NCBI RefSeq assembly: GCF_046119375.1
Contig: NW_027362765.1
Location: 271,064,001 to 271,128,000, forward strand
Reading direction: 5' to 3'
Length of the DNA stretch: 64,000 nt
DNA from: Phyllobates terribilis
Taxonomy: Eukaryota
Shown here one piece after another: positions 775 to 64,000 of the stretch. The first letter of the stretch is position 1; each line of letters begins with the position of its first letter. The translations under genes and the position numbers were made by a program. The notes beneath the pieces are model-generated. The model was not told where the DNA came from. It saw only the letters and a list, made by a program, of their open reading frames with translations, and did no database searches.

Positions 775-1437
775 TAATTAGTGATAGCGGCACTTAAAAG
801 GATGCTCTGAAAATGTGATAAAGATGGCCACCGTCACATATTTCAAAACTCACAAAAAACTCATTGTGAGAAAACAACCTCAAAGATCTGGGCCAGTTGT
901 AGATCTCAGCTGACACGTGCAGTGTATGGAGGGTGAATGACGGAAAGGGATTAAAAAAAAAACAAACAAACCTGTGTGCTTGGGCAAAATGGCAAAGGAT
1001 CTGCTACATTCAGATGATTATTCCATTTGCTGGCAATGGGCTGCACAGTGAAGCACAGGCCAACACCGTCCCCCTCCCTGCTGCACAGCAATCATGTGGT
1101 TCTGGTCACCAGTATGGAACCTATAGTGTAGGCGCCTATGTATCCGCTAGGTATTAGAATTAGCTGTATAGTTATCAATGGTTTGCTGGTGTTGAGACGT
1201 CCATGGTAGGTGTGGGGCAGGGTATAAAGAGGGCTTGATAAAGCGTCGTGTGTACTGCGTGTTGGGCGCTGTTTGCTCATGCTGCAGTATGGAATATTGG
1301 GTCACTGTTTATCATATGGGGCTTGTGCAATGGATTATTATGCTGCTGCCTTTTCTCTACTTTCCTGGCATCTTTAGTGCAGAGGCTTTATAGGATTAGG
1401 TTGTCACCCCTGCACCTTGGTAAGGTGTAAGATTTAA

Positions 1438-1825
1438 GCTATGTGCCCACGTTGCATTTATGAAGCAGAAAATTTCTGCTTCATTTCTGCAAGTCCTCTC
1501 CCGGAAAAACGCATGCGGAATTCCGCACGCGTTTATCGCGCATTTTTCGCGCGTTTATCACGCGTTTTCCACATGCGGAATTGCCTTGCGTTTTTTATGC
1601 ATTGGACTAAGGCAATTCCGCTTGCGGAAACGCAAAATTAAATGACATGCTGCGGATATTTGAACGCAGCATAAACGCTGCAGAAAAATCCGCAGCATGT
1701 GCATAGAACTTGCGGAATCCCATTGGGGACCATGGGGGGGCGGATTACCTAGCGTTTAACAAGCGTTTCCGCTGCGGAAATTCCGCAGCATAAACGCTTG
1801 AAAAACGCTACGTGGGCACACAGCC
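1438..1825. mobile_element. Non-autonomous TIR element (MITE, PIF/Harbinger-like)
   Basis: Inverted ends GCTATGTGCCCACGT / ACGTGGGCACACAGCC flanked by TAA/TTA; palindromic interior; no ORF. Confidence 0.7.
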
Positions 1826-2027
1826 TTAGGGTCAGGATAATAAGTCTAGTCCTCCAGCTCCTGTCCCATATGTGGCTTTGTTTTTTCTCTATTTATTTAC
1901 TGTGATTATGAGAAGCCTTCCATAATTAATGTGGGTCATTATTATGCATATATATTTATACATCTAGGGGTAGTTATCTTAGTAGTTTGCCACCATATAT
2001 AGGGGGATGTCTCCCCTTCAAGTATTA

Positions 2028-2527
2028 GGGTATGTGCACACGTTCAGTATTTGCAGAAGAAACATTTGCTACAAATACTGATGTGTTGGCAAGAAAAGCA
2101 CAGCATAAAATACATGCGTTTTCAATGCATTTTCCCCATTCATAGTATCTGCAGGAAAAACGCTGAAAAAAACTGACGTGCTGCAGATTTAAATCAGCAA
2201 GGAAAATTTAAGCAATGTGTGCATGAGACTAAGACCACGGCCCCACTATCAGTATTCGGTCAGTATTTTTTCTCAGGAGTGGGAGAGAAAACCAGGAGTG
2301 GGTGATAAATGCAGAATAGGTGACTTGTTTCTATTATACCTTTTCTCTGATTGTTCCACTCCTGGCTTTGGCTCCCACTCCTGAGAAAAAAATACTGACC
2401 AAATACTGATAGTGGGGCCGTGGCCTAAGGATTCTCATTCACTGCTGTAACTAGGAAATCCTTCAGGTTTTATGACAAAACGGTGTATAAAAAAAAAAAA
2501 AAAAAAACGCAACATGTGCAAGAAGCC
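2028..2527. mobile_element. Harbinger-like MITE interrupted by a second MITE
   Basis: Ends GGGTATGTGCACACG / CATGTGCAAGAAGCC; removing 2233-2428 restores a sequence resembling the uninterrupted copy near 13180-13230. Confidence 0.55.
2233..2425. mobile_element. 193-bp MITE nested in the MITE above
   Basis: Long inverted ends (GACCACGGCCCCACTATCAGTATT / AATACTGATAGTGGGGCCGTGGCC) and a TAA duplication at 2230-2232 and 2426-2428. Confidence 0.8.
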
Positions 2528-2741
2528 TTCATGGCCTCCGGTATATTTTCCCTCTATACCTCCCCAGCATCAATAAGTTACACATTATTATCTTTTTGTA
2601 GGTGTAGGACGTTCCGTGGCTTTATAAATATTTGTGCAATACTGGATACAGCGTGCAGTTTTTCGTTCTGTGATGTAGCTTTGTAGCTTGGATCCTTTTC
2701 TTAGGGTTATGGTGGGGTTTATTTTGCACAAACAAATTACC

Positions 2742-4710
2742 TGTAATGCACACGCCCGGGCTGAGCGGCGTGTGCGTGCGATTCCACTGGACCGTGCCGG
2801 AGAGTGAATGCCTGGAGGGGCGTAACTAGGTATTCACCCGATCCGACCAGGGTCGCACGACGGCATACGACGCCAGTGCACCAAGGAGGGACCAGGTGCT
2901 ACTCCAGGACAGACCCCGGACACGGCTGTTGACCCACACAGGGGAATACAGGAACAGACTGGTAGGCTGGCACACAGACTGGTGGGTATAGGCTGGCTCG
3001 ACTGGGATGCAGGCAGGCAGGTATGCAGGCAGGGGGGTACAGGCAAGCACAGCTAGAGTGCAGACAGGGAGGCACTAGCAGGTAGGAACACAGGCGGGAT
3101 AGGACCCAGTACACACTGGGACTCAGGAACAATACAGGCAGAGGGGTACAGGCAAGCACAGCTAGAGTGCAGACAGGGAGGCACTAGCAGGTAGGGACAC
3201 TGGCGGGATAGGACCCAGTACACATTGGGACTCAGGAACAGAACCACAGATGTGGCGGACAAACACAGCAGAGTGAGGCCGCCCAGAGAGGTGAGCGAGA
3301 GCAGGGCAGGACAAGGCCGCCAGGAGCGGTGAGCAAAGGGTCAGAGCTGAGCGAGACTGCCGGAGCAGTGAGCAAGAGTAAAGCAGGACGAGGCCACCTG
3401 GAGCGGTGAGCAAAAGGGTCAGAGCGGAGCAAGGCTGCCGGAGCAGTGAGCAAAAGGGTCAGAGCGGAGCAAGGCTGCCGGAGCGGCGAGCAAAGGACCC
3501 AGAGCAGGCTAGAACTGCCGGAGCGGCGAGCAAAGGACCCAGAGCAGGCTAGAACCGCCGGAGCGGTGAGCAAAGGAGTCAGAGCAGGCTAGAACCGCCG
3601 GAGCGGTGAGCAAAGGAGTCAGAGCAGGCTAGAACCGCCGGAGCGGTGAGCAAAGGAGTCAGAGCAGGCTAGAACCGCCGGAGCGGTGAGCAAAGGAGTC
3701 AGAGCAGGCTAGAACCGCCGGAGCGGTGAGCAAAGGAGTCAGAGCAGGCTAGAACCGCCGGAGCGGTGAGCAAAGGAGTCAGAGCAGGCTAGAACCGCCG
3801 GAGCGGTGAGCAAAGGAGTCAGAGCAGGCTAGAACCGCCGGAGCGGTGAGCAAAGGAGTCAGAGCAGGCTAGAACCGCCGGAGCGGTGAGCAAAGGAGCC
3901 AGAGCAGGCTAGAACCGCCGGAGCGGTGAGCAAAGGAGCCAGAGCAGGGGGGACAGGGCGCTGTTCACACAGAACAGACAGGAAGAGAAAGGCAGAGCCA
4001 GATACCCACAGGGTACTTGAAGTGAAGTAGCGAGTGGACCACAAACTCACAAACGGGAGTACAGAGACAACAAGCAGGAGTTAAGTACGAGTTCAGACTC
4101 TGCAGAAAAAGGAAGGGAACGGACATAGAGGCAAAACAGGTAAAGGATAGGAGAGAGTTCAGACTGGAACTGAGTGTACGGAGGAGACCGACACTGCAGC
4201 GGGATACAGGAGCGGATCTGGGAATACTGCCCCCAGAGAGGCGGGACGAACAGGCAAGGAGCGTGTTCAGACAAGACAGACAAGATACAGGAGCGGGTCT
4301 AGGTAATCGGCCCCTAGAAGGCGGGAGGAACAGGCTAGGAGCGTGTTCAGACAGGCCTAGAAATACAGCCTCCAGGATAGGCAGACAAGAGAACACAGAA
4401 CGGGACCTGGCACCTTCAGAGTGCAAGCACACACTGAATGAAACACTATGCTCAGGCAGGGATTGATTGGAGCAGCTGAGCTATATACCAGGTGACAGAC
4501 AGCAATAGGCTGAGGACGCACAAGGGGTGTGACCCACAGCAGGTACAAAAAAGCAGGAAGTGATCGGGCGCCGCCCTTAAGCAGCAGAAACAGACACAAA
4601 CAGACAGCATGGAGGGAATCCAGAGAGATATTCTGGACTGGAGATCAAGTGCGCGCTCTTGCACAGTGGGAGATGGACCACCATGCCAGGACGCCGCCAG
4701 GTATGTTACA
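2742..4710 (-). mobile_element. Solo LTR (~1.97 kb) of an LTR retroelement, in CENPX intron 2
   Basis: Termini TGTAA...TTACA; 5-bp target duplication TTACC at 2737-2741 and 4711-4715; TATA-like TATATAG on the - strand near 4482-4488; no internal coding sequence. Confidence 0.8.
3400..3945. repeat. 40-bp minisatellite inside the solo LTR
   Basis: Unit GAGCGGTGAGCAAAGGAGTCAGAGCAGGCTAGAACCGCCG repeated almost perfectly over 3541-3900, with diverged copies from ~3290. Confidence 0.95.
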
Positions 4711-4942
4711 TTACCCAACTATTTAGCCATTCTTTACAGGTATAACAGTGCAGATGATTGTCCTATAGTACATAGTCAGACCATCACACTATACATTTGT
4801 AGTTTCAGCTGATAATGTCCAAAAAACACCCAAAACTTGACCATTCATATTTTCTAACTCCCATACGACGGTCGGATGAAATGGTTGTCTGTAATGTCGG
4901 CTGCCATTTATCCGATGTGTCTGAGCGGTGTACGGTCCATAC

Positions 4943-6669: not shown

Positions 6670-7520
6670 CTGCTATGGGGGCAATGCAGGGGGGTCGCTA
6701 CTGCTATGGAGGCGACGCAGGGGGTCACTACTGCTATGGAGGCGATGCAGGGGGTCACTACTGCTATGGAAGCAACGCAGGGGGTCACTACTGCTATGGA
6801 GGCAACGCAGGGGGTCACTACTGCTATGGAGGCGACGCAGGGGGTCACTGCTGCTATGGGGGCGATGCAGGGGGTCACTACTGCTATGGAAGCGATGCAG
6901 GGGGTCACTACTGCTATGGAGGCGATGCAGGGGGTCACTACTGCTATGGAAGCGACGCAGGGGGTCACTACTGCTATGGAGGCGACGCAGGGGGTCACTA
7001 CTGCTATGGAGGCGACGCAGGGGGTCACTACTGCTATGGAAGCGACGCAGGGGGTCACTACTGCTATGGAGGCGACGCAGGGGGTCACTGCTGCTATGGG
7101 GGCGATGCAGGGGGGGTCACTGCTATGGGGGCGACGCAGGGGGGGGCACTGCTATGGGGGGTGACGCAGGGGGGGGGCACTGCTGCTATGGGGGCGACGC
7201 AGGGGGGGGTCATTGCTGCTATGGGGGCGACGCAGGCGGGGGGGGGTCACTGCTATGGGGCAACGCAGGCGGGGGGGGGGGTCACTGCTATAGGGCAACG
7301 CAGGCGGGGGGGTCACCGCTATGGGGGCGACACAAAGGGGGGGGTCACCGCTATGGGGGCGACGCAGGGGGGGGGGGTCACCACTATGGGGGCAACGCAG
7401 GGGGGGGGTCACTTATGGGGCAACGCAGGGGGGGGTCACTGCTATGGGGGTGATGCAGGGGGGGGGTCACTGCTATGGGGGCGACGCAGGGGGGGGGGGT
7501 CACTGCTATGGGGGAACTGG
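6670..7520. repeat. 30-bp G-rich minisatellite, right part, decaying toward CENPX exon 1
   Basis: Unit GGGGTCACTACTGCTATGGAGGCGACGCAG, regular over 6690-7100 and then degenerate. Confidence 0.95.
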
Positions 7521-7661: not shown

Positions 7662-7697
7662 CTTACGAAACTCCACCGACTCTTCTTCCCGCTCCAT
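7662..7697 (-). CDS. CENPX: CENP-X coding exon 1 (MEREEESVEFRK)
   Basis: ATG at 7697-7695; 12 codons ending FRK as in recalled human MEGAGAGSGFRK; donor AAG|GCAAGT; head-to-head with LRRC45 as in other vertebrates. Confidence 0.8.
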
Positions 7698-8078
7698 CCT
7701 TCCTATCTGCCGCTTAGCCCTTCTCCTCCCCTAATCTAAACACGGAGCTGAGCGAGCAGCTGATTGGTGGATGGGCCTGTCAATCATAGCAGTCTCCACC
7801 AATCAAATCTCCCGCGGTGATTCCAAACAGAATTCTAAACACAAGAGTGCGCAGTGTAACGCGGAAGTCTGTCTCCAGGTCTTCTAGTGACATCACCGAG
7901 GGTGGCTATGTTTCCGAAGATAAAAGGCTACTTAGTTTTTATTAGGCGGCGTTGATAAAATGGCGCCGGTAATGGAGTCATAATCTCTCTGTAGTAGTCC
8001 TTTGGGTCTGACAGATTGAACTCAGTGCCTTCCTGGTTACATGTTGTGTGTACATGGAGAAACCGATAGCAGGTACAG
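7698..8078. promoter_or_regulatory. Putative bidirectional CENPX/LRRC45 promoter and non-coding first exon of LRRC45
   Basis: CCAAT boxes in both orientations (ATTGG ~7763-7767, CCAATCA 7799-7805), ETS-like GCGGAAGT 7861-7868, YY1-like AAAATGGCG 7957-7965, locally CpG-rich; strong donor CAG|GTAAGT at 8078/8079; acceptor TTTTCTATAG at 11338 upstream of the LRRC45 ATG. Confidence 0.55.
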
Positions 8079-8861
8079 GTAAGTGGCTGTCAGGTGTGTT
8101 ATTTCCATATAGTGCATGGGTACTATATACTATGTGTAGGTTCACATTGTCTGGTTTTTTGACTTGTTTGCATTCTGTGCAATTTAAGGGTGTGGCATGC
8201 CCTTTGTTGAGCTGATTGGTATATATGTAGCTTACCACGGGCCTAGGTGGTCTGGAGTTGGGACCCGGTCCTATTTGTCTACCCTTTTATATGCATTACT
8301 TCAACTTTGATATACAGTAAGGTTTTTAATATAGGCAGTATAGGTACCGTCCCAATTTAGGGTCACCTTGCCGCTGGTGGGACGGCTTGTATACTTTTTT
8401 TGATCAAAAATAGTTCACTAAGTACCCTATATTTATTATGCAATTTTGCTTTACATTTATATATAATTATGGTAGGGTATGAGATATATTTTTGTCTTGC
8501 TTCTTTTTTGCTAGTGTGAACATGCCTCTGTTTCTTGTATGTCTGCCATCTTAGACCTCAGTTCACATTGTCTGGTTATGTGTAGGTAGGGTAGGGTCTT
8601 ATGACCACTTGTGTCTTCTCGTGCCACAACATGACTAGCAGTGCAGTGTCCGTAGCCATGCAATGGCCATATGAGCAAACCCCATAGAAGTGAAAGGGAG
8701 TCGGTGGGCATGTGAGCCTACAGCAGGTAAGCCTTGCTCTGCCTTTAGCGCCTGGCATCCTATGATCTGAGCCTGGCCATGTTATATAATATGGGACACC
8801 CCAATGTGCCTTGGTCACATGGCATAGCAGGGCACCAGTATGTGGGCAATTGGCATGGCGG

Positions 8862-9145
8862 CGCTCCAGTACAAGGGCACTTGGCACGGCGGTGCTCTGG
8901 TACCTGGGCACTTGGCACGGCGGCGCCCCAGTACCTGGGCACTTGGCACGGTAGCGCCCCGGTGCCCGGGCACTTGGCACGGCAGCGCCCCGGTGCCCGG
9001 GCACTTGGCACGGCGGCGCTCCGGTACCCGGGCACTTGGCACGGCGGCGCCCTGGTACCTTGGCACGGTGGCGCTCCGGTACCTGGGCACTTGGCACGGC
9101 GGCGCTCCGGTACCTGGGCACTTGGCGCGGCGGCGCTCCGGTACG
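8862..9145. repeat. 31-bp GC-rich minisatellite
   Basis: Unit GGCACTTGGCACGGCGGCGCTCCGGTACCTG, ~9 copies. Confidence 0.9.
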
Positions 9146-9706
9146 TGCCTTAGTGCACGGCGGAGTTGTTATGGTGAGTGCAGGGTTGGGGTTAGTGTTA
9201 GAAGTCAGAGTTGTCAGGGCAGCGACCTGCCTATTGCCAGTTTGGGGGAACAGTTTGCTCATTGGTCATTACATACAGTACACCCATATGCATCATCTCT
9301 CCTCAATTAATGAATAAATGAGCTACACCCTTAAAAACATGATTTTTTTTTTTAAATCAAAAATGTATAAGCCCATCTACCACTGACCTCATTACAGAAG
9401 GGACCATGATTCTGCAGCCTCGCCTCTCCATGTTCCTTGGCCGTAAATAAACTGGAGAAGAAACGGATCCAGATATAATTTGCTCCAATTAAAATAGTCA
9501 TATTAGGATGAGCAGATGTCACTAAATGGCTTTCTGACAGATACGCATTTCATACAATTCCCCAGAGCCCCTTCATACTGCACACAGTTATGACACTTAC
9601 CTGTGACTGTGCTCAGGTCACATCTGCACTGGATCACTGTAGCTGGCAAATGGCTGTAATATATAACCATCACTGATACGCTGCGAATTTTCACCATTGT
9701 CAATGC

Positions 9707-10871
9707 TTAAGATCACAAAGTCTTGATTCCATATATAAAGGGAATATCTTTTACCAACTAACACAAAAAGCCCTTTTATCTATTTATTATGAAAGATAAT
9801 CTTTAATAGTCATATTTGACAAATATAACGTAAAGTGCCCATATAAAGTGACCTAGTGCAGGCAGAAATATACATTCATCATGATTAATTTTTCCTATTT
9901 TCACACCTTACTGAAGACGATAATCTTTCACTACTTGATATATAATATATAGGTGTGAACTTGAACAAAAACAGCCTATACATAATAGGTCACTAATCTT
10001 AAAAACAGCAGGAGAAGGTTATTGTAGGTGGGACTTATGAATACATATCTATTATTTCCCAAACTGCATCAATATACCACATACATGTCAAGGGCTCAAC
10101 CCTATAAATGGAGTCCTTAATCAGATGCTTTACACATATTACAGTATGATATTCACAAGGTTAACAGTGCTAATCCCCCTCACAGTTTGAGTTTATATAA
10201 TAAGCTGATACTCCATTCCAAAATACTTTTTCAAGACAATAACATGATCAAAGATAGAGCTCTCTGCAGGATGATCTTCTCCTGATGAACCACTAAACAA
10301 CGGGGAAACGCGTTGAGGAGTTTGGAGGAATGATGGGGGCAACCTAAATACATATTTCAGATAAGTCCTATCTTTGATCATGTTATTGTCTTGAAAAAGT
10401 ATTTTGGAATGGAGTATCAGCTTATTATATAAACTCAAACTGTGAGGGGGATTAGCACTGTTAACCTTGTGAATATCATACTGTAATATGTGTAAAGCAT
10501 CTGATTAAGGACTCCATATATAGGGTTGAGCCCTTGACATGTATGTGGTATATTGTTGGAGTTTGGGAAATAATAGATATGTATTCATAAGTCCCACCTA
10601 CAATAACCTTCTCCTGCTGTTTTTAAGATTAGTGACCTATTATGTATAGGCTGTTTTTGTTCAAGTTCACACCTATATATTATATATCAAGTAGTGAAAG
10701 ATTATCGTCTTCAGTAAGAAGGTGTGAAAATAGGAAAAATTAATCATGATGAATGTATATTTCTGCCTGCACTAGGTCACTTTTTATGGGCACTTTATGC
10801 ATGTTATATTTGTCAAATATGACTATTAAAGATTATCTTTCATAATAAATAGATAAAAGGGCTTTTTGTGT
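9707..10871. mobile_element. Non-coding Penelope-like insertion forming a ~500-bp inverted repeat
   Basis: 13-bp duplication CCATTGTCAATGC at 9694-9706 and 10872-10884; arms 9761-10257 and 10368-10871 are near-perfect reverse complements; hammerhead motif in the 110-bp spacer. Confidence 0.75.
10276..10320 (+). ncRNA. Minimal type I hammerhead ribozyme motif
   Basis: Stem I CTTCTC/GAGGAG, core CTGATGA (10282-10288), short stem II, GAAAC (10305-10309), palindromic AACGCGTT stem III, GUU triplet with predicted cut after 10314. Confidence 0.7.
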
Positions 10872-11385
10872 CCATTGTCAATGCTGCAGCATATATCCAT
10901 ATGTATTCCATGCGGATTTTGCAGCGGAAAAACCTGCTGCACGTGGACCTACACTTTATATTGACTCACTTAGGGTATGATTACAGTGGTGCAAATTCTT
11001 TTTGCTGAAAAATTAGCAAAGTGGATGAGATTTCTCCCCATCTCATCCACTTTTTGCATAAAAAAATCAATGCGGATTTTATCCCGTGATGCATTTATTT
11101 AAAATCTGCAGGAAATCCTACTAGTGCAGCATTCACACATCCGTATGTCATGCTGTGGGTACTGGCTGCTAATGTCTTGACCCAAACTTGATAGCCTCCT
11201 AGACATGTATAGGGTTCTCAAGTTTGGATCAAGAGGCCCGCGGCGAGTCTGTGCATCACAGTGTGTACTCCGATTATGTCACATATAGTGTGCATCTTCA
11301 TGTACTGGTCATGCGTGGTCTGCTTGGTTTTTCTATAGGTGGAAGCGTTTGAGCCCTGACGAAATATTCTGTTCGCACGCAAGTG

Positions 11386-11617
11386 ATGGATGAACTGAAA
11401 CGGTTATATATCATGCTGTGCCAGGAGAAGGGGGCAGAGCCCCAAGATGCAGTACTGAAGGAATTACAGAAGATGAAAGAGTCTTGTGGACAAGGGAAAC
11501 TGGATTTGTCCACCCAGAATCTCTCCATGGAGTCCTGCCAGGTCCTGGGTCTCCTCCTGCAGAATGATGTTACCTTCTCACATGTCGTCCTCAGTGATTG
11601 CATGCTCAGCGAAGATG
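11386..11617 (+). CDS. LRRC45: LRRC45 coding exon 1
   Basis: MDELKRLYIMLCQEKGAEPQDAVL...LSDCMLSED matches the recalled LRRC45 N-terminus; donor G|GTAAGT. Confidence 0.95.
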
Positions 11618-52150: not shown

Positions 52151-55100
52151 CACACAGGTACACACATCTATACCAGCAGTACGCAAAACACACATCTATA
52201 CCAGCAGTATGCCATACACACATCTATACCAGCAGTATGCCATACACACATCTATACCAGCAGTACGCAAAACACACATCTATACCAGCAGTATGCCATA
52301 CACGCACGGGTACACACATCTATACCAGCAGTACGCAAAACACACATCTATACCAGCAGTATGCCATACACGCACGGGTACACACATCTATACCAGCAGT
52401 ATGCCATACACACACTGTTACACACATCTATACCAGCAGTATGCCATACACACATCTATACCAGCAGTATGCCATACACACATCTATACCAGCAGTATGC
52501 CATACACACATCTATACCAGCAGTATGCCATACACACACTGTTACACACATCTATACCAGCAGTATGCCATACACACATCTATACCAGCAGTATGCCATA
52601 CACACACTGGTACACACATCTATACCAGCAGTATGCCATACACACACGGCTACACACATCTATACCAGCAGTATGACATACACACACGGGTACACACATC
52701 TATACCAGCAGTACGCAAAACACACATCTATACCAGCAGTATGCCATACACACATCTATACCAGCAGTATGCCATACACACATCTATACCAGCAGTATGC
52801 CATACACACATCTATACCAGCAGTATGCCATACACACACTGTTACACACATCTATACCAGCAGTATGCCATACACACATCTATACCAGCAGTATGCCATA
52901 CACACACTGGTACACACATCTATACCAGCAGTATGCCATACACACACGGCTACACACATCTATACCAGCAGTATGACATACACACACGGGTACACACATC
53001 TATACCAGCAGTACGCAAAACACACATCTATACCAGCAGTATGCCATACACACATCTATACCAGCAGTATGCCATACACACATCTATACCAGCAGTATGC
53101 CATACACACATCTATACCAGCAGTATGCCATACACACATCTATACCAGCAGTATGCCATACACACACGGCTACACACATCTATACCAGCAGTATGCCATA
53201 CACACACGGCTACACACATCTATACCAGCAGTATGCCATACACACACGGCTACACACATCTATACCAGCAGTATGCCATACACACACGGCTACACACATC
53301 TATACCAGCAGTATGCCATACACACACGGCTACACACATCTATACCAGCAGTATGCCATACACACACGGCTACACACATCTATACCAGCAGTATGCCATA
53401 CACACACGGCTACACACATCTATACCAGCAGTATGCCATACACACACGGCTACACACATCTATACCAGCAGTATGCCATACACACTGGTACACACATCTA
53501 TACCAGCAGTATGCCATACACACACTGGTAAACGCATCTATACCAGCAGTATGCCATACACACACTGGTACACGCATCTATACCAGCAGTATGCCATACA
53601 CACACGGGTACACGCATCTATACCAGCAGTATGCCATATACACACGGGTACACGCATCTATACCAGCAGTATGCCATACACACACTGGTACACACATCTA
53701 TACCAGCAGTATGCCATACACACGGGTACACACATCTATACCAGCAGTATGCCATACACACACGGGTACACACATCTATACCAGCAGTATGCCATACACA
53801 CACGGGTACACGCATCTATACCAGCAGTATGCCATACACACACGGGTACACGCATCTATACCAGCAGTATGCCATATACACACGGGTACACACATCTATA
53901 CCAGCAGTATGCCATACACACTTGTACACACATCTATACCAGCAGTATGCTATACACACACTGGTACACACATCTATACCAGCAGTATGCCATACACAAG
54001 GGTACACACATCTATACCAGCAGTATGCCATACACACACGGGTACACACATCTATACCAGCAGTATGCCATACACACTTGTACACACATCTATACCAGCA
54101 GTATGCTATACACACACAGGTACACACATCTATACCAGCAGTACGCAAAACACACATCTATACCAGCAGTATGCCATACACGCACGGGTACACACATCTA
54201 TACCAGCAGTATGCCATACACACACTGTTACACACATCTATACCAGCAGTATGCCATACACACATCTATACCAGCAGTATGCCATACACACATCTATACC
54301 AGCAGTATGCCATACACACATCTATACCAGCAGTATGCCATACACACACTGTTACACACATCTATACCAGCAGTATGCCATACACACATCTATACCAGCA
54401 GTATGCCATACACACACTGGTACACACATCTATACCAGCAGTATGCCATACACACACGGCTACACACATCTATACCAGCAGTATGACATACACACACGGG
54501 TACACACATCTATACCAGCAGTACGCAAAACACACATCTATACCAGCAGTATGCCATACACACATCTATACCAGCAGTATGCCATACACACATCTATACC
54601 AGCAGTATGCCATACACACATCTATACCAGCAGTATGCCATACACACACTGGTACACACATCTATACCAGCAGTATGCCATACACACACGGCTACACACA
54701 TCTATACCAGCAGTATGCCATACACACACGGCTACACACATCTATACCAGCAGTATGCCATACACACACGGGTACACACATCTATACCAGCAGTATGCCA
54801 TACACACACGGCTACACACATCTATACCAGCAGTATGCCATACACACACGGCTACACACATCTATACCAGCAGTATGCCATACACACACGGCTACACACA
54901 TCTATACCAGCAGTATGCCATACACACACGGCTACACACATCTATACCAGCAGTATGCCATACACACTGGTACACACATCTATACCAGCAGTATGCCATA
55001 CACACACTGGTAAACGCATCTATACCAGCAGTATGCCATACACACACTGGTACACGCATCTATACCAGCAGTATGCCATACACACACGGGTACACACATC

Positions 55101-58100
55101 TATACCAGCAGTATGCCATATACACACGGGTACACGCATCTATACCAGCAGTATGCCATACACACACTGGTACACACATCTATACCAGCAGTATGCCATA
55201 CACACGGGTACACACATCTATACCAGCAGTATGCCATACACACATCTATACCAGCAGTATGCCATACACACATCTATACCAGCATTATGCCATACACACA
55301 TCTATACCAGCAGTATGCCATACACACACTGTTACACACATCTATACCAGCAGTATGCCATACACACATCTATACCAGCAGTATGCCATACACACACTGG
55401 TACACACATCTATACCAGCAGTATGCCATACACACACGGCTACACACATCTATACCAGCAGTATGACATACACACACGGGTACACACATCTATACCAGCA
55501 GTACGCAAAACACACATCTATACCAGCAGTATGCCATACACACATCTATACCAGCAGTATGCCATACACACATCTATACCAGCAGTATGCCATACACACA
55601 TCTATACCAGCAGTATGCCATACACACATCTATACCAGCAGTATGCCATACACACACGGCTACACACATCTATACCAGCAGTATGCCATACACACACGGC
55701 TACACACATCTATACCAGCAGTATGCCATACACACACGGCTACACACATCTATACCAGCAGTATGCCATACACACACGGCTACACACATCTATACCAGCA
55801 GTATGCCATACACACACGGCTACACACATCTATACCAGCAGTATGCCATACACACACGGCTACACACATCTATACCAGCAGTATGCCATACACACACGGC
55901 TACACACATCTATACCAGCAGTATGCCATACACACACGGCTACACACATCTATACCAGCAGTATGCCATACACACTGGTACACACATCTATACCAGCAGT
56001 ATGCCATACACACACTGGTAAACGCATCTATACCAGCAGTATGCCATACACACACTGGTACACGCATCTATACCAGCAGTATGCCATACACACACGGGTA
56101 CACGCATCTATACCAGCAGTATGCCATATACACACGGGTACACGCATCTATACCAGCAGTATGCCATACACACACTGGTACACACATCTATACCAGCAGT
56201 ATGCCATACACACGGGTACACACATCTATACCAGCAGTATGCCATACACACACGGGTACACACATCTATACCAGCAGTATGCCATACACACACGGGTACA
56301 CGCATCTATACCAGCAGTATGCCATACACACACGGGTACACGCATCTATACCAGCAGTATGCCATATACACACGGGTACACACATCTATACCAGCAGTAT
56401 GCCATACACACTTGTACACACATCTATACCAGCAGTATGCTATACACACACTGGTACACACATCTATACCAGCAGTATGCCATACACAAGGGTACACACA
56501 TCTATACCAGCAGTATGCCATACACACACGGGTACACACATCTATACCAGCAGTATGCCATACACACTTGTACACACATCTATACCAGCAGTATGCTATA
56601 CACACACAGGTACACACATCTATACCAGCAGTACGCAAAACACACATCTATACCAGCAGTATGCCATACACGCACGGGTACACACATCTATACCAGCAGT
56701 ATGCCATACACACACTGTTACACACATCTATACCAGCAGTATGCCATACACACATCTATACCAGCAGTATGCCATACACACATCTATACCAGCAGTATGC
56801 CATACACACATCTATACCAGCAGTATGCCATACACACACTGTTACACACATCTATACCAGCAGTATGCCATACACACATCTATACCAGCAGTATGCCATA
56901 CACACACTGGTACACACATCTATACCAGCAGTATGCCATACACACACGGCTACACACATCTATACCAGCAGTATGACATACACACACGGGTACACACATC
57001 TATACCAGCAGTACGCAAAACACACATCTATACCAGCAGTATGCCATACACACATCTATACCAGCAGTATGCCATACACACATCTATACCAGCAGTATGC
57101 CATACACACATCTATACCAGCAGTATGCCATACACACACTGGTACACACATCTATACCAGCAGTATGCCATACACACACGGCTACACACATCTATACCAG
57201 CAGTATGCCATACACACACGGCTACACACATCTATACCAGCAGTATGCCATACACACACGGGTACACACATCTATACCAGCAGTATGCCATACACACACG
57301 GCTACACACATCTATACCAGCAGTATGCCATACACACACGGCTACACACATCTATACCAGCAGTATGCCATACACACACGGCTACACACATCTATACCAG
57401 CAGTATGCCATACACACACGGCTACACACATCTATACCAGCAGTATGCCATACACACTGGTACACACATCTATACCAGCAGTATGCCATACACACACTGG
57501 TAAACGCATCTATACCAGCAGTATGCCATACACACACTGGTACACGCATCTATACCAGCAGTATGCCATACACACACGGGTACACACATCTATACCAGCA
57601 GTATGCCATATACACACGGGTACACGCATCTATACCAGCAGTATGCCATACACACACTGGTACACACATCTATACCAGCAGTATGCCATACACACGGGTA
57701 CACACATCTATACCAGCAGTATGCCATACACACACGGGTACACACATCTATACCAGCAGTATGCCATACACACACGGGTACACGCATCTATACCAGCAGT
57801 ATGCCATACACACACGGGTACACGCATCTATACCAGCAGTATGCCATATACACACGGGTACACACATCTATACCAGCAGTATGCCATACACACTTGTACA
57901 CACATCTATACCAGCAGTATGCTATACACACACTGGTACACACATCTATACCAGCAGTATGCCATACACAAGGGTACACACATCTATACCAGCAGTATGC
58001 CATACACACACGGGTACACACATCTATACCAGCAGTATGCCATACACACTTGTACACACATCTATACCAGCAGTATGCTATACACACACAGGTACACACA

Positions 58101-61100
58101 TCTATACCAGCAGTACGCAAAACACACATCTATACCAGCAGTATGCCATACACACATCTATACCAGCAGTATGCCATACACACACTGGTACACACATCTA
58201 TACCAGCAGTATGCCATACACACACTGGTACACACCTCTATACCAGCAGTATGCCATACACACATCTATACCAGCAGTATGCCATACACACACTGGTACA
58301 CACATCTATACCAGCAGTATGCCATACACACACGGCTACACACATCTATACCAGCAGTATGCCATACACACACGGCTACACACATCTATACCAGCAGTAT
58401 GCCATACACACACGGGTACACACATCTATACCAGCAGTATGCCATACACACACGGCTACACACATCTATACCAGCAGTATGCCATACACACACGGCTACA
58501 CACATCTATACCAGCAGTATGCCATACACACACGGCTACACACATCTATACCAGCAGTATGCCATACACGCACGGGTACACACATCTATACCAGCAGTAT
58601 GCCATACACACACTGTTACACACCTCTATACCAGCAGTATGCCATACACACATCTATACCAGCAGTATGCCATACACACATCTATACCAGCAGTATGCCA
58701 TACACACACTGGTACACACATCTATACCAGCAGTATGCCATACACACACGGCTACACACATCTATACCAGCAGTATGACATACACACACGGGTACACACA
58801 TCTATACCAGCAGTACGCAAAACACACATCTATACCAGCAGTATGCCATACACACATCTATACCAGCAGTATGCCATACACACATCTATACCAGCAGTAT
58901 GCCATACACACATCTATACCAGCAGTATGCCATACACACACTGGTACACACATCTATACCAGCAGTATGCCATACACACACGGCTACACACATCTATACC
59001 AGCAGTATGCCATACACACACGGCTACACTCATCTATACCAGCAGTATGCCATACACACACGGGTACACACATCTATACCAGCAGTATGCCATACACACA
59101 CGGCTACACACATCTATACCAGCAGTATGCCATACACACACGGCTACACACATCTATACCAGCAGTATGCCATACACACACGGCTACACACATCTATACC
59201 AGCAGTATGCCATACACACTGGTACACACATCTATACCAGCAGTATGCCATACACACACTGGTAAACGCATCTATACCAGCAGTATGCCATACACACACG
59301 AGTACACACATCTATACCAGCAGTATGCCATACACACACGGCTACACACATCTATACCAGCAGTATGCCATACACACACTGGTACACACATCTATACCAG
59401 CAGTATGCCATACACACACTGGTACACGCATCTATACCAGCAGTATGCCATACACACACGGGTACACACATCTATACCAGCAGTATGCCATATACACACG
59501 GGTACACGCATCTATACCAGCAGTATGCCATACACACACTGGTACACACATCTATACCAGCAGTATGCCATACACACGGGTACACACATCTATACCAGCA
59601 GTATGCCATACACACACGGGTACACACATCTATACCAGCAGTATGCCATACACACACGGGTACACGCATCTATACCAGCAGTATGCCATACACACACGGG
59701 TACACGCATCTATACCAGCAGTATGCCATATACACACGGGTACACACATCTATACCAGCAGTATGCCATACACACTTGTACACACATCTATACCAGCAGT
59801 ATGCTATACACACACTGGTACACACATCTATACCAGCAGTATGCCATACACAAGGGTACACACATCTATACCAGCAGTATGCCATACACACACGGGTACA
59901 CACATCTATACCAGCAGTATGCCATACACACTTGTACACACATCTATACCAGCAGTATGCTATACACACACAGGTACACACATCTATACCAGCAGTACGC
60001 AAAACACACATCTATACCAGCAGTATGCCATACACACATCTATACCAGCAGTATGCCATACACACACTGGTACACACATCTATACCAGCAGTATGCCATA
60101 CACACACTGGTACACACCTCTATACCAGCAGTATGCCATACACACATCTATACCAGCAGTATGCCATACACACACTGGTACACACATCTATACCAGCAGT
60201 ATGCCATACACACACGGCTACACACATCTATACCAGCAGTATGCCATACACACACGGCTACACACATCTATACCAGCAGTATGCCATACACACACGGGTA
60301 CACACATCTATACCAGCAGTATGCCATACACACACGGCTACACACATCTATACCAGCAGTATGCCATACACACACGGCTACACACATCTATACCAGCAGT
60401 ATGCCATACACACACGGCTACACACATCTATACCAGCAGTATGCCATACACACTGGTACACACATCTATACCAGCAGTATGCCATACACACACTGGTAAA
60501 CGCATCTATACCAGCAGTATGCCATACACACACGAGTACACACATCTATACCAGCAGTATGCCATACACACACTGGTACACGCATCTATACCAGCAGTAT
60601 GCCATACACACACGGGTACACACATCTATACCAGCAGTATGCCATATACACACGGGTACACGCATCTATACCAGCAGTATGCCATACACACACTGGTACA
60701 CACATCTATACCAGCAGTATGCCATACACACGGGTACACACATCTATACCAGCAGTATGCCATACACACACGGGTACACACATCTATACCAGCAGTATGC
60801 CATACACACACGGGTACACGCATCTATACCAGCAGTATGCCATACACACACGGGTACACGCATCTATACCAGCAGTATGCCATATACACACGGGTACACA
60901 CATCTATACCAGCAGTATGCCATACACACTTGTACACACATCTATACCAGCAGTATGCTATACACACACTGGTACACACATCTATACCAGCAGTATGCCA
61001 TACACAAGGGTACACACATCTATACCAGCAGTATGCCATACACACACGGGTACACACATCTATACCAGCAGTATGCCATACACACTTGTACACACATCTA

Positions 61101-63713
61101 TACCAGCAGTATGCTATACACACACAGGTACACACATCTATACCAGCAGTACGCAAAACACACATCTATACCAGCAGTATGCCATACACACATCTATACC
61201 AGCAGTATGCCATACACACACTGGTACACACATCTATACCAGCAGTATGCCATACACACACTGGTACACACCTCTATACCAGCAGTATGCCATACACACA
61301 TCTATACCAGCAGTATGCCATACACACATCTATACCAGCAGTATGCCATACACACACTGGTACACACCTCTATACCAGCAGTATGCCATACACACACTGG
61401 TACACACCTCTATACCAGCAGTATGACATACACACACGGGTACACACATCTATACCAGCAGTATGCCATACACACACGGGTACACACATCTATACCAGCA
61501 GTATGCCATACACACACGGGTACACACATCTATACCAGCAGTATGCCATACACACACGGCTACACACATCTATACCAGCAGTATGCCATACACACACGGC
61601 TACACACATCTATACCAGCAGTATGCCATACACACACGGGTACACACATCTATACCAGCAGTATGCCATACACACTGGTACACACATCTATACCAGCAGT
61701 ATGCCATACACACACTGGTAAACGCATCTATACCAGCAGTATGCCATACACACACGAGTACACACATCTATACCAGCAGTATGCCATACACACACTGGTA
61801 CACGCATCTATACCAGCAGTATGCCATATACACACGGGTACACGCATCTATACCAGCAGTATGCCATACACACACTGGTACACACATCTATACCAGCAGT
61901 ATGCCATACACACGGGTACACACATCTATACCAGCAGTATGCCATACACACACGGGTACACACATCTATACCAGCAGTATGCCATACACACACGGGTACA
62001 CGCATCTATACCAGCAGTATGCCATACACACACGGGTACACGCATCTATACCAGCAGTATGCCATATACACACGGGTACACACATCTATACCAGCAGTAT
62101 GCCATACACACTTGTACACACATCTATACCAGCAGTATGCTATACACACACTGGTACACACATCTATACCAGCAGTATGCCATACACAAGGGTACACACA
62201 TCTATACCAGCAGTATGCCATACACACACGGGTACACATCTATACCAGCAGTATGCCATACACACTTGTACACACATCTATACCAGCAGTATGCTATACA
62301 CACACTGGTACACACATCTATACCAGCAGTATGCCATACACAAGGGTACACACATCTATACCAGCAGTATGCCATACACACACTGGTACACACATCTATA
62401 CCAGCAGTATGCCATACACACACGGGTACACACATCTATACCAGCAGTATGCCATACACACACGGGTACACACATCTATACCAGCAGTATGCCATACACA
62501 CTGGTACACACATCTATACCAGCAGTATGCCATACACACACGGGTACACACATCTATACCAGCAGTATGCCATACACACACGGGTACACACATCTATACC
62601 AGCAGTATGCCATACACACACTGGTACACACATCTATACCAGCAGTATGCCATACACACACTGGTACACACATCTATACCAGCAGTATGCCATACACACA
62701 CTGGTACACACATCTATACCAGCAGTATGCCATACACACACTGGTACACACATCTATACCAGCAGTATGCCATACACACACTGGTACACACATCTATACC
62801 AGCAGTATGCTATACGCACTCGGCTACACACATCTATACCAGCAGTATGCCATACACACACGGGTACACACATCTATACCAGCAGTATGCCATACACACA
62901 CTGGTACACACATCTATACCAGCAGTATGCCATACACACACTGGTACGCACATCTATACCAGCAGTATGCCATACACACACTGGTACACACATCTATACC
63001 AGCAGTATGCCATACGCACTCGGCTACACACATCTATACCAGCAGTATGCCATACGCACACGGGTACACACATCTATACCAGCAGTATGCCATACACACA
63101 CGGGTACACACATCTATACCAGCAGTATGCCATACACACACGGGTACACACATCTATACCAGCAGTATGCCATACACACACTGGTACACACATCTATACC
63201 AGCAGTATGCCATACACACACTGGTACACACATCTATACCAGCAGTATGCCATACACACACGGGTACACACATCTATACCAGCAGTATGCCATACACACA
63301 CGGGTACACACATCTATACCAGCAGTATGCCATACACACACGGGTACACACATCTATACCAGCAGTATGCCATACACACACGGGTACACACATCTATACC
63401 AGCAGTATGCCATACACACACGGGTACACACATCTATACCAGCAGTATGCCATACACACATCTATACCAGCAGTATGCCATACACACACTGGTACACACA
63501 TCTATACCAGCAGTATGCCATACACACACGGGTACACACATCTATACCAGCAGTATGCCATACACACACGGGTACACACATCTATACCAGCAGTATGCCA
63601 TACACACATCTATACCAGCAGTATGCCATACACACACTGGTACACACATCTATACCAGCAGTATGCCATACACACACTGGTACACACATCTATACCAGCA
63701 GTATGCCATACAC
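52151..63713. repeat. 11.6-kb variant-unit minisatellite in RAC3 intron 1
   Basis: Invariant 28-bp core CACACATCTATACCAGCAGTATGCCATA, alone or plus a 10-12-bp module (CACACACGGGTA, CACACACGGCTA, CACACACTGGTA, CACACTGGTA etc.); roughly 300 units. Confidence 0.98.
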
Positions 63714-64000
63714 ATATTACACATTTAAACACTGGTAAATACATCTCTCTGCCAGCAGCACACCTTATAATGTGTTTCTATTACACATCTACAGACTTGT
63801 GCATACATATATACACTGGTACATATATCTAGCTTACAGTAGTGTGGAGTATAATTTGTATATAATACACATGGGTACATACATCTACCTGCCAGCAGTA
63901 TACCGTACAATCTGAATATATTAGATATTGGTACATACATCTTCCTGCCAGCAATATTCTATAGAAGATGCCTATATAGTTTCTATACTGACATGACTGA

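Follow-up and report, generated by a model that had tools for sequence, protein, structure and literature searches.

A long hairpin with a hammerhead ribozyme motif in its loop lies upstream of the start codon of the frog gene LRRC45, and it raises two questions: what kind of element left it there, and whether it does anything to the gene. It was found in the window, by which we mean the whole 64-kb stretch of Phyllobates terribilis DNA that was analysed. Very probably it is a young head-to-head insertion of two partial 5' leaders of a Neptune-type Penelope-like element (PLE) in the first intron of LRRC45; it likely arose in a single event and is likely inert.

Structure and position of the insert

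The host gene was recognised by the exon at 11386-11616, which has 92-97% identity to annotated poison-frog LRRC45. Contigs from four runs of two studies were used to define its structure; none of these runs is recorded as RNA, and they were treated as RNA-like since their contigs join exons at GT-AG. In all four, the contig entering at 11339 carries sequence ending at 8078, joining exon 1 to exon 2, and loose contig ends at 11337 match 8047-8076, again in four of four. Exon 1 is non-coding (7872..8078, plus strand; 205 letters in run X1), with a start that is a lower bound taken from the longest contig. Exon 2 (11339..11617, plus strand), with the start codon at 11386, is defined by contig coverage, GT-AG joints and LRRC45 identity. 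Because the contigs join 8078 to 11339, the insert lies in intron 1 (8079-11338) with its hammerhead in sense orientation, and the location in the LRRC45 5'-UTR intron proposed in the earlier note holds in every run.

The near-perfect arms of about 500 bp are also as first described. They occupy 9761-10257 and 10368-10871 and enclose a spacer of 110 nt; aligned as reverse complements, they differ by 4 substitutions in 493 columns and at 2 short indel sites. A target-site duplication, CCATTGTCAATGCT, bounds the insert on the plus strand, its left copy (9694..9707) being identical to the right one (10872..10885). It had been given as 13 bp around a unit of 1165 bp, but it measures 14 bp, the commonest length in the family, so the insert is 9708-10871 (1164 bp). 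On the left side only, a 53-bp unpaired extension (9708..9760, minus strand) is the PLE "tail", that is, the long 3' end; it continues the arm in sister copies, and long ends cluster at reference 671-696. With leader position defined as window position minus 10257, the left copy (9761..10257, minus strand) runs from leader position 111 into the tail, and comparison with sister copies identifies it as a 5'-truncated leader copy without hammerhead. The right copy (10258..10871, plus strand) has no tail and runs from leader position 1, the inferred transcription start, to a short 3' end about 50 nt short of the tail; 29 of 102 family copies start within 5 nt of the 10258-equivalent. Its arm (10368..10871, plus strand), delimited by the arm alignment, is a region of 35% GC and a putative PLE leader intron.

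The arms are 0.8% apart and the nearest sister copy is 2-4 substitutions away, which makes the insertion a young one. Long-read sequencing is known to produce palindromes as artefacts, and the inverted repeat could be such a product, or a local fold-back duplication made with no retrotransposition. Both are extremely improbable, since at each of the 4 sites and the indels that separate the arms one arm has the family allele, and the clean 14-bp duplication and one-sided tail match 40 other loci.

The parent element and the layout of its insertions

The statement that there is one copy only is true within the 64-kb window and fails in the genome, where a 21-mer of the spacer has 110 exact matches (reversed control, 0). 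A search of the frog's own genome returned 414 candidates, 40 of which were scored, and full-length arm matches are 93-98% identical. In longer copies at three loci (L031, L045 and L049) the leader continues into a frame whose RVT_1 domain scores E 4e-7 to 5e-6 and whose GIY-YIG domain scores E 9e-5 to 4e-4, both near the Pfam cut-offs; no complete ORF is present among the family loci examined. L031 and L049 have a Cys-rich linker, CGSCKFC ... CKS, upstream of GIY-YIG. According to PMC8557442, a Zn-finger-like Cys motif between RT and EN is common to Neptune and Nematis, and the linker together with the vertebrate host points to a Neptune-type element. L031 is laid out as inverted copy, direct copy, ORF and direct copy, which gives pLTRs in both tandem and inverted arrangement. 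This arrangement, the parent with RT and C-terminal GIY-YIG, the tail at one end with a duplication and the hammerhead in the pLTR are the features of an EN+ PLE. One family copy (L039) is accompanied, at 927-4859 of its locus, by a chromodomain-bearing Ty3/gypsy-type frame of 1311 aa.

The suggested Penelope-like origin with a minimal palindromic hammerhead is borne out. The non-coding, retrozyme-like insert gives way to an inverted, truncated copy from a PLE family that has an ORF. The frog sequence does share with animal non-LTR retrozymes, as described in bioRxiv 10.64898/2026.07.22.740005, that it is non-coding, hammerhead-bearing and PLE-related. Unlike those retrozymes, which form short non-coding head-to-tail arrays and have no ORF-bearing form, it is not a short tandem unit, and in longer copies its leader is contiguous with an autonomous-type ORF, the RT-EN gene. 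The family appears to be transcribed, as contigs of runs X1 and X15 (3012 and 4218 nt) span the ORF end, leader and tail of a subfamily that makes up about 20 of 89 copies.

For the layout of insertions, 79 clusters were sampled by similarity and by the spacer 21-mer, after 4 segmental duplicates had been dropped. Fifty of the 79 are inverted. In 40 of the fifty, one arm has a long 3' end and the other a short one, as in the LRRC45 intron; in the remaining 10 one arm ends elsewhere, and long-long or short-short pairs number 0. The duplication is at least 12 nt in 35 of 37 measurable pairs, most commonly 14 (17/37). The hairpin is a known kind of insertion, an inverted pLTR with tail and target-site duplication, and as such is ordinary transposon debris in a host intron. 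Inverted 5'-truncated pLTRs with tail and duplication are described in PMC8557442 and PMC3846280. The frog insertion resembles that scheme and Pen2a_Av (PMC3846280) in the 5'-truncated inverted copy set head to head, the one-ended tail, the duplication, the parent with RT and C-terminal GIY-YIG, and the Cys-rich linker, as in Neptune/Nematis. It differs from them in having no ORF, a tail of about 50 bp rather than 30-40, a duplication of about 14 bp rather than 8-10, an upstream TATA-like box and a leader intron of about 600 nt.

Alternatively, the 1164-bp unit could itself be what propagates, as a member of a fold-back or retrozyme-like family that is non-autonomous. Near-identical layouts do occur in two other independent insertions, with the inner junction at leader 1/111, as in the window, in L002/L003 (C7:431.52 Mb and 432.26 Mb) and at 3/107 in L005. 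Over the 50 inverted clusters, however, junctions vary widely, L002 has its tail on the opposite arm, longer copies have the leader running straight into the RT-EN gene, and the loci retrieved include no short non-coding unit repeated head to tail. We regard this alternative as highly improbable. The recurrence of the 1/111 junction in an independent insertion (L002), whose tail is on the other arm, counts against the preferred reading of a PLE insertion. The inner junctions of L002, L003 and L005, as independent insertions, sit a few bases inside the 5' end of the leader intron.

The preferred reading, one insertion event of the PLE, would proceed as follows. The GIY-YIG endonuclease of the element would make a 14-nt staggered break, and each DNA end would prime reverse transcription of the element's RNA, from the long site (the tail end) in one case and from about 50 nt further in in the other. 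The short-site cDNA would extend as far as the capped 5' end of an RNA that had not been cut, and would therefore include the hammerhead, the long-site cDNA would stop at leader position 111, and the two cDNAs would be joined head to head. Two-ended priming is inferred because the PLE protein studied in PMC11167929 cleaves both strands, extends them and initiates at two internal RT sites, which define the tail. That element, PAc (Poseidon of Anolis; Frangieh et al. 2024, PMC11167929), is like the frog element in these two internal start sites and, with respect to the LRRC45-intron copy, in an uncut RNA template; its sites are inside the ORF, whereas those of the frog are in the leader upstream of the ORF. 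The long 3' end of insertions falls, at leader position 679 of L031, on a branch-point-like CTTAT, 23 nt before the intron AG. Both RT start sites are thus inside the putative leader intron, and spliced RNA would be without them.

The hammerhead and the 5' ends of family copies

The minimal type I hammerhead lies at 10276..10320 of the plus strand. Its stem I (10276-10281/10315-10320) has 6 bp including one G-U, the core reads CTGATGA (10282-10288) and GAAAC (10305-10309), and there are a palindromic ACGCGT and a triplet GTT ending at 10314. These letters, the stem I, the GUU triplet and the cut predicted after 10314 stand as previously described. For stem II, a bulged A10289 followed by two C-G pairs (C10290-G10304 and C10291-G10303) is a better reading than an A-G first pair. 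An Rfam search, which had been called for, returned no hammerhead family among 7 weak matches at E<=10. The conserved core, the bulge after A9 and the palindromic stem III of minimal PLE hammerheads are all present at 10282-10314, and the first stem II pair is C10290-G10304, here and in the commonest family form, instead of G10.1-C11.1. Metazoan PLE minimal type I hammerheads, as characterised by Cervera and de la Pena 2014 (PMC4209133), likewise have the core CUGANGA/GAAA, an extra nucleotide between 9 and 10.1, a palindromic 15.2-16.2 region and a pLTR location. The frog motif differs from them in a stem II of 2 bp, with C10.1-G11.1 in place of the conserved G-C, and in the GUU of the LRRC45-intron copy.

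Among 75 whole family hammerheads, 53 are identical and read GUC, and T at the cleavage base is found in 3, including the LRRC45-intron copy. Judged from this comparison of sequences, GUU is a private decay of the family GUC, a CpG transition that would have followed the insertion. Counting 10314, the private variants of the LRRC45-intron copy are at 10314, 10497, 10556 and 10559. The template RNA of the LRRC45-intron copy would have been uncut, because the copy starts at leader position 1.

Whether the family ribozyme acts at all can be read from the 5' ends, which were scored in 102 of the 110 copies with the spacer 21-mer (98 after dropping 4 duplicates). By leader position, 36 of the 102 ends are upstream of -30, 2 at -29 to -6, 29 at -5 to 5, 8 at 6-14, 5 at 15-53, 0 at 54-57, 8 at 58, 2 at 59 and 12 at 60-88. 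Position 58 (the 10315-equivalent) is the first base past the predicted cut, and 8 of the 98 copies start there. With duplicates dropped, position 58 accounts for 8 of the 24 ends in the interval 15-88 (Poisson 1e-10, 8e-9 corrected; 0 of 200,000 uniform simulations). Longer copies have a TATA-like TATAAG 30 nt upstream of leader position 1, which, with an extra G in 6 of 7 copies, marks 10258 (plus strand) as the inferred capped transcription start of the element. This extra G precedes 6 of the 7 independent copies starting at 1, against 1 of the 8 starting at 58 (Fisher p 0.01). The contrast is suggestive, being that expected for capped versus ribozyme-cut RNA, and several of the Gs also match the partner arm. 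The ten ends at 58-59 comprise two that directly adjoin a duplication of 12-14 bp, a third that is 7 nt from one, three that are joined to an inverted partner and four where the duplication is short, complex or missing.

Stalling of the RT at stem I was considered as the cause of the pile-up at 58 and rejected. A stall should leave ends on the 3' side of the stem, from 63 onwards; stalling does not account for 8 ends exactly at 58 with none at 54-57; ends at 62-67 may be stalls. The 5' ends thus argue that the family ribozyme cuts part of the template RNAs in vivo. It would then belong to the element, likely trimming part of its RNAs. The literature search found no report of genomic 5' ends marking a PLE hammerhead cut. 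PMC11167929 reports no reads ending at the ribozyme site in Anolis, whereas 8 of the 98 frog copies start there. PMC4209133 gives only low in vitro activity of minimal PLE hammerheads, whereas in the frog genomic 5' ends mark the cut. In vivo cleavage by minimal PLE hammerheads is an open question in PMC11167929 and PMC4209133, and the family is a useful natural record of it. For a motif with a 2-bp stem II it offers two sharp genomic 5' ends: the first carries a cap-like extra G, and the second lies exactly at the cut and lacks it.

The LRRC45-intron motif itself likely does not cut, to judge from its GUU, the predicted competing fold and the lack of a second ribozyme for its 2-bp stem III. 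The hairpin offers no partner, as the minus arm is without the motif and would be antisense, and a single minimal hammerhead gave no cleavage in vitro in PMC4209133. In ViennaRNA, imposing stems I and II carries a penalty of 11.7 kcal/mol for the hairpin and 10.8 for the isolated spacer, compared with 6.8-8.2 when the copy is a GUC one; the program ignores tertiary contacts and scores the family GUC form as unfavoured too, so that the argument is relative only. Against an inert motif, the core is intact apart from GUU, which PMC3138052 lists among the cleavable triplets, and the family ribozyme appears to cut in vivo, possibly with the assistance of protein, by analogy with PMC11167929.

Leader splicing, editing and the host transcript

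Is the leader ever spliced? In one of the four runs (X2), a single 166-nt contig of depth 23 links 10360 directly to where the PLE ORF starts; the roughly 600 nt left out open with ATAAGT and close with CAG. Because of this join, the arms are read as largely the leader intron of the element and the loop as its first exon. The donor-like CAG|ATAAGT (10358..10366, plus strand), for which this spliced contig is the evidence, is a perfect U2 donor but for A at +1. The first exon has ATG ATG and then an in-frame TAA (10330..10347, plus strand), and the observed join is in frame between the ATG at 10330 and the ORF. Most copies have the stop five codons on, and it reads CAA in 2 of 69 listed copies (L038 and L045; C391 and C280). 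All genomic donors examined are AT (69/69 copies and 110/110 matches). A GT-donor form was found 0 times in the genome search and in 0 of the 69 copies, a wider donor pattern for sister families gave 1 candidate match, and the joined leader form occurs 0 times in the assembly. The X2 join could possibly come from a GT allele or deletion private to that animal, or be a template-switch artefact at the shared CAG.

Another reading is that the family splices its leader at the genomic AT donor only after A-to-I editing, with AU read as GU, which would switch element RNA between a spliced message and an unspliced template in which both RT start sites are retained. Fold-back copies such as the hairpin have the donor 7 nt from the 500-bp duplex, so that editing could turn 91 nt carrying the hammerhead (10270-10360) into a cassette exon of the LRRC45 5'-UTR. 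The donor A is predicted to be paired (0.92) at the top of the duplex, and AT-AG introns, edited and unedited, are known in human from Parada et al. 2014 (PMC4176328). Like the non-canonical and editing-dependent AT-AG introns described there, the frog case has a U2-like donor with A at +1 joined to AG; unlike them, it is in a retroelement leader and is represented by one contig, with editing hypothetical. We consider the editing switch decidedly unlikely. The single AT-AG spliced contig does raise the question of how PLEs balance splicing and intron retention. Exonization into LRRC45 was set aside, as no joint 10360-11339 is present in the four runs; this is a weak negative, since contigs drop rare forms and the RNA donors may or may not carry the insertion.

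A further alternative is that the PLE stub acts on LRRC45, either through editing or dicing of the 500-bp duplex or through cutting by the hammerhead with proteins or element RNA in trans, lowering or altering output. A near-perfect duplex transcribed within intron 1 speaks for it, as does the family's in vivo cleavage supported by the 5' ends, and a long duplex is a generic ADAR substrate. Editing or dicing of the hairpin dsRNA had indeed been anticipated, and neither was found: the RNA-like contigs, which cannot show rare edits, gave no sign of A-to-I editing. They have 18 substitutions, and all T>C/A>G changes but one are present in genomic copies (14-68 of 89), so that these differences are the alleles of a subfamily's other copies and not edits. 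The exception, 10787, is at an 11-bp duplication where the alignment is ambiguous. Likewise, no aberrant LRRC45 joint was seen, and if the intron were edited to some extent, that would be no surprise and would not by itself imply a function. Intronic cleavage need not block splicing. Action of the stub on LRRC45 is therefore unlikely, and a role in LRRC45 regulation is unsupported. Under the preferred reading of an inert PLE insertion, LRRC45 pre-mRNA would most likely be spliced normally, the hairpin being removed with the intron. No contig in the four runs crosses the 9707/9708 junction, either with the insert or as an empty site, and none is assignable to the hairpin locus, a weak negative.

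Regarding the surroundings of LRRC45, a divergent ATG exon, MEREEESVEFRK, lies at 7662-7697 on the minus strand, about 170 nt from LRRC45 exon 1, and ends at a GC-type donor. It resembles the start of CENPX, which we take to be the head-to-head neighbour of LRRC45; a Pfam CENP-X search matched another contig and not the window, and a motif scan gave no further exons. The region of the LRRC45 promoter and first exon has a GC-rich minisatellite on each side (6670-7514 and 8843-9144), with units of 30 and 31 nt. Positions 52272-63714 are taken up by a satellite of 11.4 kb that is strongly strand-skewed and has units of 40/28 nt.
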